Shown: positions 16,431-63,811 of the stretch, in pieces | Layout of the letters: each line of letters starts with the position of its first letter | Numbering within the stretch: position 1 is the first letter of the stretch | Source: a virus | Strand: one strand, 5' to 3' | IMG/VR virus record: IMGVR_UViG_3300012178_000001 | Span: 1 to 64,000 of that record | Length of the DNA: 64,000 nt | Made by a program: the position numbers and the translations under genes | Notes under the pieces: generated by a model | Database searches by the model: none | Told to the model about the DNA's origin: nothing | The model's input: only the letters and a program-made list of their open reading frames with translations

Positions 16431-16504
16431 TAATTAAATGTTACATTTATATTTTTTATTGAAATTCTAATTTTTAGTTAAAAATATAACAAAACATTAT
16501 ATTA
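16431..16504. promoter_or_regulatory. Divergent pair of AACA-N6-TA late promoters
   Basis: AACATTTAATTA on - strand (16431-16442) and AACATTATATTA on + strand (16493-16504). Confidence 0.65.
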
Positions 16505-24698: not shown

Positions 24699-24820
24699 AA
24701 TCTATTGCTCTCCTTTCTAAATATTTTATTAATAACATGTTAATATATTATTAAATTGAATGAGGATGTAAGAGTGAATAACAGACAAAGGATATTATTA
24801 GTATTTAATCATTGAAATAT

Positions 24821-31259: not shown

Positions 31260-31377
31260 AGTTTATCCTATCATAAATGAGTGATAGGATAAACTTTTTT
31301 ATTTTAAATTAAACATTTAATTAGACGATTTTAGTATAGCATATTAATATAAAATATAAAAGAGAGGGTGGAAATTA

Positions 31378-45462: not shown

Positions 45463-45587
45463 AACTGACCTCCTAAGTGTAATTCTTATTCACATGTTAA
45501 TTAAATGTTAATGTTGAGTTTTGTTATTTTTATTTTAATGTGAACATTTTAATAATAGTGTTAATTGAAAGGAAGGAGTTGTATACT

Positions 45588-58168: not shown

Positions 58169-58266
58169 TTTTATAAATTAATAAGAAAACCTTAGCGGGT
58201 TTTCTTTTTTTTTTATTATGAAACATGTTATTAATATTACAGTATATAGAAAGGTGGTTTATATAA

Positions 58267-59511
58267 ATGAAACGTGACAATTATATTGCAAGGGCACAAG
58301 CGACTACATCAGTATCATCTATAATGGGTAATGTAAGCTATGTAGCAAAGAAATACATACTAAGTAAATTCCCTAAGAATTACTTTAATGAGATTACTAT
58401 TGCTAATGGACTTATATCATCTGATTTAAGAGAGACTGATGAAGATGTAAAGAAGAAACCTAATCCTAAATTATCTATAAATCCTATATTTATTCCTGAT
58501 GAGAATGATACATTCGGAGGTTCCTTACCAGAATGGTACAATAGTGGGGAAAGTTTTATAATGAGAGATACACTTAATAACTATCATCCAGTACTTTATA
58601 ATGATACTGATGAGATTTATATATGGACTGTACCTAATAAGTTAAAGTTAAATTTTGATATAAAGATTAAACTAAATACATCAATGCAAAAGATTGATTT
58701 ACTTCACTACTTAAGACGTATATTCTTAAATAATAAGCATATGTATATTAACGATGTCACACTTAAAGCTGAAGTTCCTAAAGAGTTTATAGCAAATGTT
58801 GCAGACCTAAAAGGACTAGACTTAACAGTTGAGGATGATATAATTGAGTTGTATAATTATTTACAAAAATTTTCTAATGGATATATCACAAGACAGATGA
58901 ATTTATCATCAGGTTTACCAACATATCAGTATAGGTTTATATCCAATATACTAATGAAGGTTGAAGAGCCTCCTAGTGGAGAGACTGAACGTGTGAGTAT
59001 GACTGAAGGCGAAAGTGAGGTTCAGACTACATTTTCGTTTGAGTTATGGATTCCAACTAATTATATTATAGAAAGCAAGGACCCACTCTCAGAGAGTGAT
59101 GGTTTTGATGATATCCTGAACAATGATAGTTACATCAGTTACTCATTCAAAACAAAGCCTGTTAGAACAATTGACGATAAAGTTGAACTATTTTGGCAAG
59201 CTTTTGTTACTGATATTGATACTGCAGAAGATATAATTGGCTTATCCCCTATAATCTCTACTAATAATAAGGAGATTATTGCACATATGATAAGTAACGA
59301 AGTATTAATTACGGACTATTATGATATAGATGTATATAGAGATGGGGAGCAACTAGAGGAAGATGTTGACTACTCATTCGACTGGAATTTACTAGAACTA
59401 TCTACATTTAATCCATTCCAGAACTATACACATCATGTAGGTTTATATGGGGATCTTAAAAAGATAAAAGATTATTATGATGAAAATATTAAAGAAGAAA
59501 AATTACTATAA
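58267..59511 (+). CDS. Putative neck / tail-terminator structural protein
   Basis: 414 aa; PKLSINP, VPNKLKLNFDIKIK resemble the gp15-type fold; late promoter 58222-58233. Confidence 0.45.
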   Translation: MKRDNYIARAQATTSVSSIMGNVSYVAKKYILSKFPKNYFNEITIANGLISSDLRETDEDVKKKPNPKLSINPIFIPDENDTFGGSLPEWYNSGESFIMRDTLNNYHPVLYNDTDEIYIWTVPNKLKLNFDIKIKLNTSMQKIDLLHYLRRIFLNNKHMYINDVTLKAEVPKEFIANVADLKGLDLTVEDDIIELYNYLQKFSNGYITRQMNLSSGLPTYQYRFISNILMKVEEPPSGETERVSMTEGESEVQTTFSFELWIPTNYIIESKDPLSESDGFDDILNNDSYISYSFKTKPVRTIDDKVELFWQAFVTDIDTAEDIIGLSPIISTNNKEIIAHMISNEVLITDYYDIDVYRDGEQLEEDVDYSFDWNLLELSTFNPFQNYTHHVGLYGDLKKIKDYYDENIKEEKLL

Positions 59512-59517
59512 TAAAAA

Positions 59518-59545
59518 GAGATAACTATCCTATGATAGTTATCTC
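59518..59545. terminator. Bidirectional terminator
   Basis: GAGATAACTATC-ctat-GATAGTTATCTC between convergent genes. Confidence 0.7.
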
Positions 59546-59553
59546 ATTATTAT

Positions 59554-61332
59554 TTACTTCTTATAGTTTTCTAACTTTACCATTATGTCGCTTAATTCAT
59601 CATCAGTTAGTTCTAAATTAAACTCATTCTTAAACCAAGTTATTAATTCATTAGGTTCATCATATTTTGAAGACTTAAGAAGTCTATTAAATTCTTTTCT
59701 ATCAATACCAGAACCTGGGCAAGTTTTATATGAGTGGTCTCTATGGAATATATAACCTATTCTAAATGAATCCATCATATAATTCATGAAATCAAATAAA
59801 GACTCTCTTTGACCATTAGTAAATTCATCATTACCTTTATCGAAGTTACCAATCATTTCTATGGCAAATCCTAAGTAGTTTCTACCACTAACGGATACTG
59901 GAGATTTATTAAAGCTTCTACCCATAACCCATTTTCCATCAGGTGCTAGAGTTAAATGTTGACCTATATCTGCCCAACCATTAGTATTTACATGGTAGTT
60001 TTTCATACCCTTTTGTAATGATTGATGATTATGACCATTAAAGTCATCAAAATTAGGTATAAATGTATGATGGATTTGTAATTCTTTAGGTTTCCTAGTC
60101 CAGTTAAATTCAATACAGTAATCAATTAATTCTTCAGTAGTCATTACTCTGAATTCTTCTTCAATATCATCAACTAATTTAATATAGTAAGCATATACCC
60201 AGCGTTTACTACCTATCTTATACCATTTGCCAGTATTATCAGTCTCTATAATATTCACGATGTCACCACTATCTATTCTATCTGCAACATCATAATTAGT
60301 GCTTGGACCATATCTAACTCTTAATACAGTCGCTCTATGAACTCTACCTTGTTTAGTTTCATACTTAGTTTCATCTTTAATTAATTTACCGAATATATCT
60401 TTACCTGAGAAATAGTGTTCCTTCCCCTTAACTTTATACCATCCATCTATCTGACCGTCAACTTCAATTATATCACCTTTGTGGTATAAATCAACTTTAG
60501 GATAGTCAAGTCCTGCAAATCTACGTACATTAAGGTATTTAGCAGTTATTTCTACCTTAGCATCAATCTTCTCTAAATTACTCTTATCTTTCTCCACTAC
60601 AATTTCATAATCCTTACCATAGATTAATAATGCATTAGCAATACGTCTTTCATCCCCACCAGCTATAAAGTTAACAACCTCATCACCTAATTGCATAGTA
60701 GAACTTCCACCACCATCAGCATTGATTGCTCTATCTGCACCTAGTTCTAACATTACTTCAGCACTTTGTTCAGCAGTTAATCCATTGTCATCAGAGTTTC
60801 TACCTTCCGCCACAACCATTAATAGTTCTCCTGAAGGCTTTTGACCTAGTAAAGTTCTAGGATGTTTTTGATTACTGTGGTCAAAGTATTCATCTCCACG
60901 GATATCTAGTTTACCGTCTAATACTAATGTGTATGATAATGAAACTCCCCACATTGCTTTACCTTTATATTTCTTATCAAACTCATCTTGAGAAACTAAT
61001 TCCTCAATAATTAATTTACCATCCATATAGATTGCTTCATAAAATCCTTTACCTACACTATCTACACGACTCTGAGTAAATCCATGATCTACATACTCTA
61101 AACCTACTGCATCAACTTCTTCTGAATATGAGAAGAACTGAAGGTTAGTACCCCCTATTTTATCAAATCCTTGCTTTTCAAACCAATTATGATTGATATC
61201 TGTTAGTTTTTCTCTGTGACCTCTATCATCAGCACATACAGTTGCAACTAAATTTTCATTAGTTTTAAATTCTAAAACGTGAATATCAGTTCCAAACCTT
61301 CTAATAGTTTTATATAGAACTTTGTTTTCCAT
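59554..61332 (-). CDS. Modular endolysin: phosphodiester glycosidase (NAGPA) + 2x SH3b + N-acetylmuramoyl-L-alanine amidase (Amidase_2)
   Basis: HPRTLLG and AINADGGGSS; LNVRR...GWYK and LRVRYGP...KWYK; QIHHT, GWADIGQH, IEMIGNFD, HRD..KTCPG. Confidence 0.85.
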   Translation of the reverse strand: MENKVLYKTIRRFGTDIHVLEFKTNENLVATVCADDRGHREKLTDINHNWFEKQGFDKIGGTNLQFFSYSEEVDAVGLEYVDHGFTQSRVDSVGKGFYEAIYMDGKLIIEELVSQDEFDKKYKGKAMWGVSLSYTLVLDGKLDIRGDEYFDHSNQKHPRTLLGQKPSGELLMVVAEGRNSDDNGLTAEQSAEVMLELGADRAINADGGGSSTMQLGDEVVNFIAGGDERRIANALLIYGKDYEIVVEKDKSNLEKIDAKVEITAKYLNVRRFAGLDYPKVDLYHKGDIIEVDGQIDGWYKVKGKEHYFSGKDIFGKLIKDETKYETKQGRVHRATVLRVRYGPSTNYDVADRIDSGDIVNIIETDNTGKWYKIGSKRWVYAYYIKLVDDIEEEFRVMTTEELIDYCIEFNWTRKPKELQIHHTFIPNFDDFNGHNHQSLQKGMKNYHVNTNGWADIGQHLTLAPDGKWVMGRSFNKSPVSVSGRNYLGFAIEMIGNFDKGNDEFTNGQRESLFDFMNYMMDSFRIGYIFHRDHSYKTCPGSGIDRKEFNRLLKSSKYDEPNELITWFKNEFNLELTDDELSDIMVKLENYKK

Positions 61333-61344
61333 TTATATCCTCCC

Positions 61345-61629
61345 TTATCCTACTATGTCATTATTATTATCATCATTATAGTTATCTCTTTCTCCATCAT
61401 TTGAATTTTTCTTGATATCAATGAACTTACTAACTCCATTAATGCCAAAGTGTCCAGCTAATATGACCATGACAGGTTGCTTAAGCAATTCTATCAATGA
61501 TAATCTATCTGGACTAATGTGAGATGTGAACGATACTATTATTAAACCTAAATATACAACCGCAAATATAAAACTTAAGAACTCACTAATAGTGAACCCT
61601 TTCTCATCATTAAAAAATGTTTTGAACAT
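61345..61629 (-). CDS. Putative holin (two TM)
   Basis: 94 aa, two hydrophobic segments, charged C-terminus, directly upstream of the endolysin; late promoter 61663-61674 (-). Confidence 0.6.
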   Translation of the reverse strand: MFKTFFNDEKGFTISEFLSFIFAVVYLGLIIVSFTSHISPDRLSLIELLKQPVMVILAGHFGINGVSKFIDIKKNSNDGERDNYNDDNNNDIVG

Positions 61630-61768
61630 TTTGAATCATCCTCCTTATATTATCCTAATTATTAATAAATTGTTATAGACTAGTTAGCATAACCCATAAA
61701 CATTTTATTAAGTATATAGTGAGTATATATTTAAATTAATTAAATTATAGAAGGAGATATATGATAAT

Positions 61769-62806
61769 ATGATTGGTAGATTGAAAGATACATTAAAGTC
61801 ACAAAAACATATTCTTTATATTCTCTTATTTGCAGGTTTAGCTTTATTAATTCTGCTTACATCATTTGTATATGTATATAATACAATATATGAAAATGAG
61901 ACAGCAAGAAAAAATGAGGACATACAAAATATAGAGGAAGTATATAAGTGGAACTTTATTCGTTCCCTAATAACTAGTACAAGAGATACCGCTAAATTAA
62001 ACTCAGAGAAAATCAGAGGTGAGATTGAGCATGAATTGAGATTACAATATGATGGAGAAATGGACCAATTGAAATACGATATTGATAATCTAACTTCTAG
62101 TTCAAGGTTCTCTAAAATACTTAATAATTCGATAGATGGAGAATATATAGTAGTTCAGAATGATAATAATGACCCATCGATAGGAGTTATAAAGTATGGA
62201 ATCTATAGTGATAAGAGTGAAAATTACTCTATTGAAGAAGGGGAAAAACGCTCTTGGGCTAATGAAATAGATTCTCATGCAAATAAGAAACTAGCAGAAC
62301 AAGCAATTGAAACATTTAAAAATATAGAAAATAGTAGTACTAAACTAATTTTCTGGGAATATCTAGAGTCAAGGGATGAAGATCATATAATGATAGAAAA
62401 TATGTCTGAGAGAGAACTTAAGAGGGTATTCCTAGAGGAAGGTCTATATGGTCTGCAAACATACGAGTTCTTAAGTTTTTCATTTATTGATGATAATGGA
62501 ACAGATGTATTCGGTAAATTTGATGTAGGTAATTTAGGAGTCCGAAATGACAACTATAAAATTATTGTAATTCAAGGCTTTAATATTGTTGACTTGATAA
62601 GAACTAAGTATAAAGATCAACTCAAAGAATTTGATTATATGAAACAATTAAGAATTAAAGAGTATAATAATAAGGTAGCTACAAGTAGAATATTATTAAC
62701 GCTTATGACACTAATAGCATCTATATTCTTTATATCCATTGTTAATATATATAATGGAATAATAACTGGAATGGATATTACAGATGAGAAGAATAATATC
62801 AACTGA
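61769..62806 (+). CDS. Two-TM membrane protein with large extracytoplasmic (Cache-like?) domain
   Basis: TM at about aa 15-37 and aa 308-328 around a ~270-aa alpha/beta domain; late promoter 61699-61710. Confidence 0.6.
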   Translation: MIGRLKDTLKSQKHILYILLFAGLALLILLTSFVYVYNTIYENETARKNEDIQNIEEVYKWNFIRSLITSTRDTAKLNSEKIRGEIEHELRLQYDGEMDQLKYDIDNLTSSSRFSKILNNSIDGEYIVVQNDNNDPSIGVIKYGIYSDKSENYSIEEGEKRSWANEIDSHANKKLAEQAIETFKNIENSSTKLIFWEYLESRDEDHIMIENMSERELKRVFLEEGLYGLQTYEFLSFSFIDDNGTDVFGKFDVGNLGVRNDNYKIIVIQGFNIVDLIRTKYKDQLKEFDYMKQLRIKEYNNKVATSRILLTLMTLIASIFFISIVNIYNGIITGMDITDEKNNIN

Positions 62807-62847
62807 AAGTTTATAGACCCTCAGCTAAAAGAGAAGGGAGCATAATA

Positions 62848-63213
62848 ATGAGTAATGAGACCTATATGATAATTACTCAAGATATTATTATTGCTTATCT
62901 TGTAAATTTTTTAAATGTTGTAATTCCTGTAATGTTAGGAGCATATGCTAAGGAATTATATCACATAACTAAAAAGGAATATAAGAGAATTAATATACAA
63001 CGTATTATAATATCTGGGGTAGTTCCAGCATTTGGTCTCTCTGCATTTTTTGATAAGATACTATCTAAAGTCAGCTATGGCACACTAATATTTCTGTGCG
63101 TAGTAGGTGGGATGGTAGGGATGCAATTATTTGAAGAAATGTCAACTTTAGAAGGTATCCGACAATTAATGAGAGATATAAATGATTTTAAAGATTTTCG
63201 AGGTAAAAAATAA
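62848..63213 (+). CDS. Holin-like three-TM membrane protein
   Basis: Three hydrophobic segments with GA/GGMVG motifs and a basic C-terminus. Confidence 0.55.
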   Translation: MSNETYMIITQDIIIAYLVNFLNVVIPVMLGAYAKELYHITKKEYKRINIQRIIISGVVPAFGLSAFFDKILSKVSYGTLIFLCVVGGMVGMQLFEEMSTLEGIRQLMRDINDFKDFRGKK

Positions 63214-63227
63214 TTAAGTAATATAAA

Positions 63228-63253
63228 AACAGATAACCTAAGGGTTATCTGTT
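63228..63253. terminator. Bidirectional terminator
   Basis: AACAGATAACC-taag-GGTTATCTGTT. Confidence 0.7.
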
Positions 63254-63733
63254 AATTATTTTATCTGAGTGTAATAAATCTTTAGGTGTTATATTACCAG
63301 TTCTATATTCAGGAACTATATCAATGCCTAAATCAATATAGATATTATCTAACATTTCAGAACATATGAATTCATTCTTATTATTCAAGACTATATCTAT
63401 ATTAAATAGTATTCTAAGCCAAAAACCTAGTGTTAGTTGTATATAATCATAATCTATACCTACAGTCTTTATTATAGCTTTTCTTAAATTGCCTAAGTCA
63501 TAGTTTCCTTCTTCAAATTTCTTTACATAGTATACTTCATAGTCATCTTCATCATACTTGTCTAATCGTCTTATAACAATATCATCATATGTAGTCTCAG
63601 CAATTAATCTATCTTCAGCATCATATACAATTGCAACATGACTAAATTCAGTTCCTAGAATCTTAGTTATAATCCATGAATACCACTTAGTAGGTCTAAC
63701 GAATATAAGGTCACCATCTTTGATTTTTTTCAT
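63245..63733 (-). CDS. Permuted papain-like NlpC/P60 amidase (YiiX/YebB family)
   Basis: GDLIF, FSHVAI, GIDYD, FICSE, ITPKDL; His precedes Cys; late promoter 63761-63772 (-). Confidence 0.85.
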   Translation of the reverse strand: MKKIKDGDLIFVRPTKWYSWIITKILGTEFSHVAIVYDAEDRLIAETTYDDIVIRRLDKYDEDDYEVYYVKKFEEGNYDLGNLRKAIIKTVGIDYDYIQLTLGFWLRILFNIDIVLNNKNEFICSEMLDNIYIDLGIDIVPEYRTGNITPKDLLHSDKIINR

Positions 63734-63811
63734 AAGTTATCACCCTTCATATATTTTAATTAATTATATGTTGAAATTTAGCATAACCATTACAGTTATG
63801 CTAAACATATC

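Follow-up and report, generated by a model that had tools for sequence, protein, structure and literature searches.

Here, we describe a lysis locus in a 64,000-nucleotide (nt) stretch of viral DNA (the window), the first 64 kb of the 92.5-kb IMG/VR viral contig IMGVR_UViG_3300012178_000001, which is estimated to be ~36% complete. The locus spans positions 59554-63733 and comprises two back-to-back divergent units plus a convergent gene for a C92-like protein. Its rightward unit encodes a protein of 345 amino acids (aa) with a predicted Cache fold between two transmembrane (TM) helices, followed by a 121-aa protein with three TM helices. We tentatively propose, at a little short of even confidence, that these two genes form a late membrane module in jumbo phages of Gram-positive bacteria, composed of a holin-like protein and a Cache-domain regulator. 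The phage genome encodes split multisubunit RNA polymerase (RNAP) genes and is therefore that of a jumbo phage of the phiKZ/AR9 type. The window is AT-rich (GC content 26-36%), and the endolysin domains found here and in relatives (SH3_3, Amidase_2, LysM, CW_7 and GH25) point to a Gram-positive host. A check of the open reading frames (ORFs) recovered, at their positions, all genes that a first-pass annotation of the same sequence had named. The locus and its boundaries contain the following features:

59518..59545, both strands: bidirectional terminator hairpin with a 12-bp stem followed by T runs on each strand; ends the leftward unit and the convergent upstream gene.
59554..61332, minus strand: endolysin of 592 aa with a NAGPA phosphodiester glycosidase domain, two SH3_3 domains and Amidase_2 (Pfam and PHROG matches).
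61345..61629, minus strand: 94-aa small membrane protein encoded 12 nt ahead of the endolysin gene, a position that makes it a holin candidate (phrog_27250).
61663..61674, minus strand: late-promoter-like motif AACAATTTATTA of the leftward unit; fits the AR9 late consensus.
61699..61710, plus strand: late-promoter-like motif AACATTTTATTA of the rightward two-gene operon; fits the AR9 late consensus.
61769..62806, plus strand: 345-aa protein with TM1, a single-Cache-like ectodomain (~aa 39-305) and TM2 (AlphaFold2 models, structural matches, homologues).
62848..63213, plus strand: 121-aa three-TM protein, partner of the Cache protein (hydropathy, charge, linkage, remote match to AR9 g082).
63228..63253, both strands: bidirectional terminator hairpin with an 11-bp stem followed by T runs on each strand, between the rightward operon and the C92 gene.
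63245..63733, minus strand: 162-aa probable homologue of permuted papain-like (C92/YiiX-type) cysteine peptidases/amidases (PF05708 below cut-off, phrog_1128, 3kw0).
63761..63772, minus strand: late-promoter-like motif AACATATAATTA, 27 nt upstream of the C92 gene (relaxed motif scan).

The two TM helices of the 345-aa protein (~18-36 and ~308-326) enclose an ectodomain of ~270 aa, and equivalent TM positions are present in all 27 homologues. The N-terminal tail is basic and the C-terminal tail is shorter than 20 aa, which bears out the claim of the first-pass annotation that the protein has no cytoplasmic output domain. Fused or longer forms of the protein were not found either, a negative result that is weak evidence. 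The full-length AlphaFold model (predicted local distance difference test score, pLDDT, 84) consists of two very long TM-bearing helices with an alpha/beta domain between them. Folded alone with 21 orthologues in AlphaFold2, the ectodomain reached a pLDDT of 91.3 and a predicted template modelling score of 0.87. An exhaustive structural comparison (VIA) of this ectodomain model with 48,161 Protein Data Bank (PDB) representatives returned extracytoplasmic Cache/PAS sensor domains as all of the top 25 matches (Z 7.5-11.2), with root mean square deviations to the Cache/PAS targets of 2.4-3.5 Å. Targets with a single Cache domain were covered nearly completely, namely TlpB (157/164, Z 10.8), Adeh_3718 (138/144, Z 10.6), WalK (144/147, Z 9.5) and CitA (127/130). 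The same Cache families were returned by a search with the full-length model, and a language-model feature search of the ESM Atlas gave Cache-clan clusters at 0.91-0.94. Matches of the full-length model to long helices of T7 tail proteins, phasin, ESCRT and other proteins were rejected as trivial; they disappeared from the top ranks once the TM helices were removed.

The ectodomain model also has the features of Cache architecture, i.e., a long N-terminal helix, a PAS-like antiparallel sheet with inserted helices, and a C-terminal return helix. As modelled, the ectodomain is a single Cache sensor fold. Polar residues dominate among the conserved positions of the family, which cluster on the sheet and between strands 2 and 3 (NDxND, D148, S150, N172, Y232/E233 and others). 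The region of strands 2 and 3 is the ligand pocket in Cache domains, and the conserved polar residues would sit at the putative pocket of the modelled fold. A Tyr/Asn is additionally conserved at the cytoplasmic end of TM2, which would fit a specific helix contact.

A profile search of 1.84 billion cluster representatives identified 503 relatives of the 345-aa protein at E ≤ 0.001, each a cluster at 50% identity, and 266 of these were found at E ≤ 1e-30. The best 150 of the 503 relatives are 163-378 aa long, nearly all within 300-380 aa, and the shorter ones are partial matches. Pairwise identity within the family is only 22-40%. The first-pass annotation had called the protein an orphan sensor, which is apt insofar as an output domain is missing and does not extend to a lack of homologues. 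Relatives were seen only in viral and metagenome contigs. None was recovered from 50,697 phage records, either by megablast with the region as query or by tblastn with the 345-aa protein and with a distant homologue, and none was present among 185,579 bacterial and archaeal species represented by one genome each. Homologues were located in 26 IMG/VR loci on contigs of 20-306 kb, most of them longer than 100 kb (the loci are numbered with the prefix L below). Genomic contexts were drawn from these IMG/VR loci only, and sub-alignments were used for the locus search because the alignment of 61 sequences was too diverse. A 358-aa gene call (P0001) in a public collection covers the 345-aa protein with 100% identity; because a stop interrupts the frame upstream in the window, the additional 13 residues must derive from a different call or a variant contig.

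The Cache gene and the gene for the three-TM protein are strictly paired. Considering the window and the 26 loci, i.e., 27 places of which ~21 are non-redundant, the Cache gene is immediately followed on its strand by a gene of the three-TM family in 26/27 places, at a distance of -32 to +131 nt. Eighteen loci that were not used for profile building match the three-TM profile at E 1e-8 to 1e-28. The sole exception is L050, where a 111-aa one-TM protein occupies the partner slot. Conservation of the linkage, for which the first-pass annotation had proposed a check, is thereby established, with non-homologous holins and endolysins nearby. In the window, the three-TM gene starts 41 nt after the Cache gene and has its own ribosome-binding site. 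Hydropathy and charge of its 121-aa product indicate three TM helices, an acidic N-terminus, a basic first loop and a charged C-terminal tail. This distribution is reflected in the mean charges of 19 family members (N-terminus 0.5+/2.2-, first loop 4.9+/1.9-, tail 11+/13-). The protein is predicted to be oriented N-out/C-in, with no more than its short N-terminus and one loop of ~6-10 aa exposed on the outer side, a layout that matches that of class I holins. Its nearest neighbours in the ESM Atlas are holin clusters, with Phage_holin_3_3 as structural neighbour (TM-score 0.50-0.57).

Lysis genes of unrelated families recur beside the pair. In the window and in L002, a phrog_27250 gene and an endolysin gene with NAGPA, SH3 and amidase domains are divergent from the pair. 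The same divergent slot is held by a Hol44-type holin (PF16079, E 7.7e-9, above the Pfam cut-off) in L027, L028, L029, L030, L032 and L034, and in L032 and L034 an endolysin of the GH25-CW_7-LysM type is located directly downstream and converges on the pair. A third, unrelated one-TM protein occupies the divergent slot in L004, L005 and L041 and stands beside a C92-like gene in L004 and L005, while in L007 a phrog_27250 gene is found three genes away from the pair. The small divergent proteins (phrog_27250, Hol44 and one-TM c23 types) are related neither to each other nor to the three-TM family, as judged by hhalign. A lysis gene adjoins the pair in 9/21 non-redundant loci. A role of the pair in lysis would explain why unrelated holins and endolysins stand beside it in different lineages, which is otherwise difficult to account for, and we hold with fair confidence that the pair probably has such a role.

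The first-pass annotation had placed back-to-back late promoters between the two units. These 12-mers, at 61663-61674 (minus strand) and 61699-61710 (plus strand), are real and unlikely to be chance occurrences. The window contains seven copies of the motif AACA[AT][TG]T[TA]ATTA, and 7/7 are intergenic and precede a correctly oriented ORF by 31-62 nt (binomial P ~2e-10 for such placement by chance). A second copy between the two rightward genes is absent. The late-promoter consensus determined experimentally for Bacillus phage AR9 is AACA-N6-TA/G, and g082, the AR9 counterpart candidate of the three-TM gene, is a late gene (PMC5312081). The 12-nt motif of the window fits this consensus as AACA-N6-TA, which suggests that the non-virion RNA polymerase of the phage reads promoters like those of AR9. 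Late expression of the window pair is plausible because of this agreement and because AR9 g082 is late. The divergent motifs and the bidirectional terminators that bound them (59518-59545 and 63228-63253) thus delimit two back-to-back units, both of which are probably expressed late, judging from sequence. Probable late-promoter sites elsewhere in the window are 16431-16442, 24730-24741, 31312-31323, 45498-45509 and 58222-58233; together with the divergent 12-mers these are the strict copies, and the additional site at 63761-63772 is looser.

A pair that looks like the same module is present in AR9 and PBS1. In AR9, g081 ('putative membrane protein', 316 aa) is the only protein in the size range with a TM-ectodomain-TM topology, and g082 ('putative holin', 136 aa) follows 13 nt after it, so that order and sizes match those of the window pair. 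A gene for a virion RNAP subunit adjoins the pair in AR9, as it does in the window. PBS1 encodes a protein identical to AR9 g081, which ranked second among the viral structures that Foldseek matched to the model of the 345-aa protein (E 1.3e-3, probability 1.0). The three-TM family aligns with g082 of AR9 and BpSp (hhalign probability 82%, E 1e-5) and shares the motifs AKEL and GGxxGM with it. The large proteins are linked by topology, synteny and the one Foldseek match. Unlike neighbouring genes, g081 and g082 are not annotated as virion proteins; the holin label of g082 is itself an annotator's guess. AR9 differs from the window in that a divergent holin-endolysin unit is missing and the pair is distant from the amidase gene g272.

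Based on these data, the three-TM protein would be a holin or holin-like pore former, and the Cache protein would bind it inside the membrane through its two TM helices. Coupling would have to proceed from TM helix to TM helix, because the three-TM protein exposes almost nothing outside. The Cache protein could then set the triggering time of the holin, either as antiholin or as activator, and an extracytoplasmic ligand in the Cache pocket might shift the triggering balance; candidate ligands are wall-derived fragments or a superinfection product. In the window, this module would form a single divergent late lysis locus with the 94-aa membrane protein and the endolysin, which are encoded back to back with it. 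Contact between the two proteins, ligand binding and an effect on lysis timing are the parts of this model that we infer, and the specific route from sensor to holin is more tentative than the module itself, ranging in our estimate from doubtful to somewhat short of even.

Individual elements of the model have precedents. Bacterial single-Cache domains (TlpB, Adeh_3718, WalK and CitA) have the same fold and the same placement between two TM helices as in the 345-aa protein. Unlike cellular Cache domains, which have a kinase, chemoreceptor or cyclase as fused output, the 345-aa protein has no such part. YycH and YycI are membrane proteins without output domains that control WalK through TM contacts, and they provide a precedent for signalling from helix to helix within the membrane by a protein that has no output domain of its own. 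The three-TM protein resembles class I holins (lambda S105 type, Phage_holin_3) in its length of ~120 aa, three TM helices, predicted N-out/C-in orientation, charged tail, probable late expression and proximity to lysis genes, although hole formation is putative here. The first-pass annotation had drawn an analogy to lysis inhibition by RI and T of phage T4. In T4, the periplasmic domain of RI binds the large periplasmic domain of the one-TM holin T. The likeness to T4 T, RI and RIII is that the extracytoplasmic domain of a membrane-anchored regulator would receive a signal and set lysis timing, and that both parts are phage-encoded and late. In contrast to T4, the three-TM partner is almost devoid of an ectodomain, the proposed sensor has two TM helices and a Cache fold, and the host is Gram-positive. 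Pfam and PHROG scans of the locus proteins showed no homology to T4 T, RI or RIII. The analogy therefore stands as a loose and purely functional one, and neither homology nor binding of a holin ectodomain is part of it, as the partner has no sizeable ectodomain. The lysis cassette of phage phiKZ encodes the class III holin gp142 and the cytoplasmic regulator gp143 (PMC12894885). It is likewise a jumbo-phage cassette with a dedicated holin regulator, for which lysis inhibition at high multiplicity of infection has been suggested (PMC12894885). The phiKZ regulator, however, is soluble and binds the cytoplasmic domain of the holin, the host is Gram-negative and spanins are involved (PMC12894885), and there is neither a Cache domain nor a sequence relation to the proteins of the window.

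Several results weigh against a holin-like protein under a Cache-domain regulator. The Cache assignment is one of predicted fold: Pfam and PHROG scans placed the 345-aa protein in no family (Pfam E ≤ 0.1), a profile of 21 ectodomains matched no Cache chain among solved structures, and Foldseek searches of the PDB gave weak E-values of 0.1-1, yet for the same families. The Cache-type receptor suggested by the first-pass annotation is hence upheld in its fold (by the model confidence and the top 25 structural matches) and not as a member of a sequence family. Unlike class I holins, the three-TM protein had no significant match to curated holin families in Pfam and PHROG profile scans. The only PHROG matched by more than one member of its family was the holin phrog_2359, weakly and in 5/19 members (best E 0.0011). 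This model is promiscuous, with matches in 10/14 control genomes, and it has no match in the genome analyzed here, and these five matches are therefore given little weight. Because a second holin candidate, the 94-aa protein, already adjoins the endolysin, pore formation may not be the task of the three-TM protein. Further, a profile of the large-protein family had no match in the whole AR9 and PBS1 genomes, and the family gave no significant hhalign match to AR9 g081, whether g081 was used by itself or combined with its BpSp homologue. Finally, 12/21 non-redundant loci have no recognisable lysis neighbour, and the pair is flanked there by polyphosphate kinase, terminase or genes without an assigned function.

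These results leave room for other explanations. The pair could be a two-component holin or a structural lysis accessory that does not sense, in which the Cache ectodomain serves as a scaffold for oligomerisation, wall contact, or placement of the pore or endolysin. PAS/Cache folds are often dimerisation modules, the lysis context and strict pairing would fit just as well, the protein is not known to bind a ligand, and its sequence falls outside all Cache Pfam families. Polar residues of the pocket region are nevertheless conserved among proteins that share only 22-40% identity, which argues for a specific binding site, and we consider a non-sensing scaffold unlikely. It is also conceivable that the pair is a late membrane system apart from lysis timing, such as for superinfection exclusion, protection against lysis from without, a decoy for host sensor kinases such as WalK, or a transporter-like accessory. 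Such a decoy would bind through TM helices and thereby alter autolysin expression. More than half of the non-redundant loci have no adjacent lysis gene, the AR9 pair lies away from g272, the WalK ectodomain is among the best single-Cache matches (Z 9.5) and a WalK-YycH model was the first row in Foldseek. However, identity to WalK is only 7-10% and gives no specific signal of mimicry, and strict pairing with a partner encoded by the phage speaks against a host target in general. Exclusion genes are usually early, whereas the pair has late-type promoters, and it would otherwise be hard to explain why unrelated holins and endolysins repeatedly adjoin the pair in separate lineages. We thus regard a function outside lysis timing as quite unlikely.

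The 94-aa protein might instead be the sole true holin and the pair merely a set of nearby core genes that are syntenic with the genes for the virion RNA polymerase and the g414 family. The virion RNAP subunit gene and the g414 family (homologous to AR9 g251, E 1e-69) are indeed conserved neighbours in several loci and in AR9. This would leave unexplained, however, why different holin and endolysin families stand beside the pair in different lineages and why the three-TM protein has holin-like features, and such incidental synteny appears improbable to us.

The genes around the pair were characterized as follows. The endolysin (59554-61332, minus strand) matches the Pfam families NAGPA (3.5e-25), SH3_3 (twice, 3.2e-17) and Amidase_2 (1.2e-7), and an orthologue with 49% identity is encoded at the same position in L002. 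The only relatives of its NAGPA part (residues 129-307) in cultured phages are found in SPO1-like Bacillus phages at ~28% identity, e.g., SPO1 gp2.43, which some records label a putative phosphodiester glycosidase. The 94-aa protein has one clear and one weak TM helix and an acidic tail. It matches phrog_27250 (9e-10), to which no function is assigned, and its match to a holin/antiholin PHROG is faint (E 0.09); orthologues are present in L002 and L007. It is a holin candidate by position and size and not by family membership. The C92-like protein matches PF05708 at E 2e-4 with 21.9 bits, which is below the Pfam cut-off of 27, and phrog_1128 at 9e-21. In its match to the cysteine peptidase structure PDB 3kw0 (E 0.0037), the His (FSH) and Cys (ICSE) motifs align. 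C92-related genes are located near the Cache/three-TM pair in L004, L005, L039 and L042.

Further gene families recur in the neighbourhood of the pair. A 414-aa protein of phrog_21946, encoded in the window at 58267-59511 (plus strand), is a strong homologue of AR9 g251, a 'putative membrane protein'; it recurs beside the pair in L002, L003, L007, L040 and L042, and the end of L038 contains a short match to it. Four related jumbo-phage contigs, L003 (L003:9804-11963, minus strand), L038, L040 and L042, have a gene for a complete polyphosphate kinase (PPK1, with each of the four Pfam domains) directly downstream of the pair, which could be an auxiliary metabolic gene. DUF5662 proteins (PF18907, ~1e-25) adjoin the Hol44-type holin in L029, L030, L032 and L034 (e.g., L032:4643-5212, minus strand), in the slot that is held by C92-like genes in L004 and L005. 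They may represent a further lysis-associated function; a relationship to the C92-like neighbours was rejected by hhalign. In one subclade, NHL-repeat/Vgb_lyase-like beta-propellers of ~530-560 aa are encoded directly downstream of the pair (L004:9413-11014, L005:9486-11090, L039:7186-8859 and L041:7258-8898, all plus strand), followed by shorter paralogues, and may be tail-fibre or receptor-binding proteins.

To our knowledge, lysis timing in large phages of Gram-positive hosts is largely unexplored, and we know of no phage other than T4 in which signal-dependent control of lysis is understood in molecular detail. Full-text literature searches for holins or antiholins with Cache or PAS domains in phages returned no report of such a system. 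The module described here is widespread, with 503 clusters at 50% identity and a uniform architecture, and is unannotated in Pfam and PHROGs, so that our results offer a better annotation for a recurrent 'hypothetical' gene pair of jumbo-phage metagenomes. It is intriguing, although doubtful at present, to propose a receptor-gated holin in Gram-positive jumbo phages including AR9 and PBS1, in which a Cache receptor without output domain is wired to the holin by membrane helices. The probable AR9/PBS1 counterpart g081/g082 makes this idea testable in Bacillus subtilis. If true, lysis would be delayed or fired by wall fragments released from neighbouring lysis, by a superinfecting phage or by a small molecule, which would be a previously undescribed form of lysis control and would give lysis inhibition a counterpart in Gram-positive hosts. 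Cache is the commonest extracellular sensor fold of bacteria; if a Cache domain gates the holin, these phages would read their surroundings via a bacterial-type receptor that operates without a kinase.

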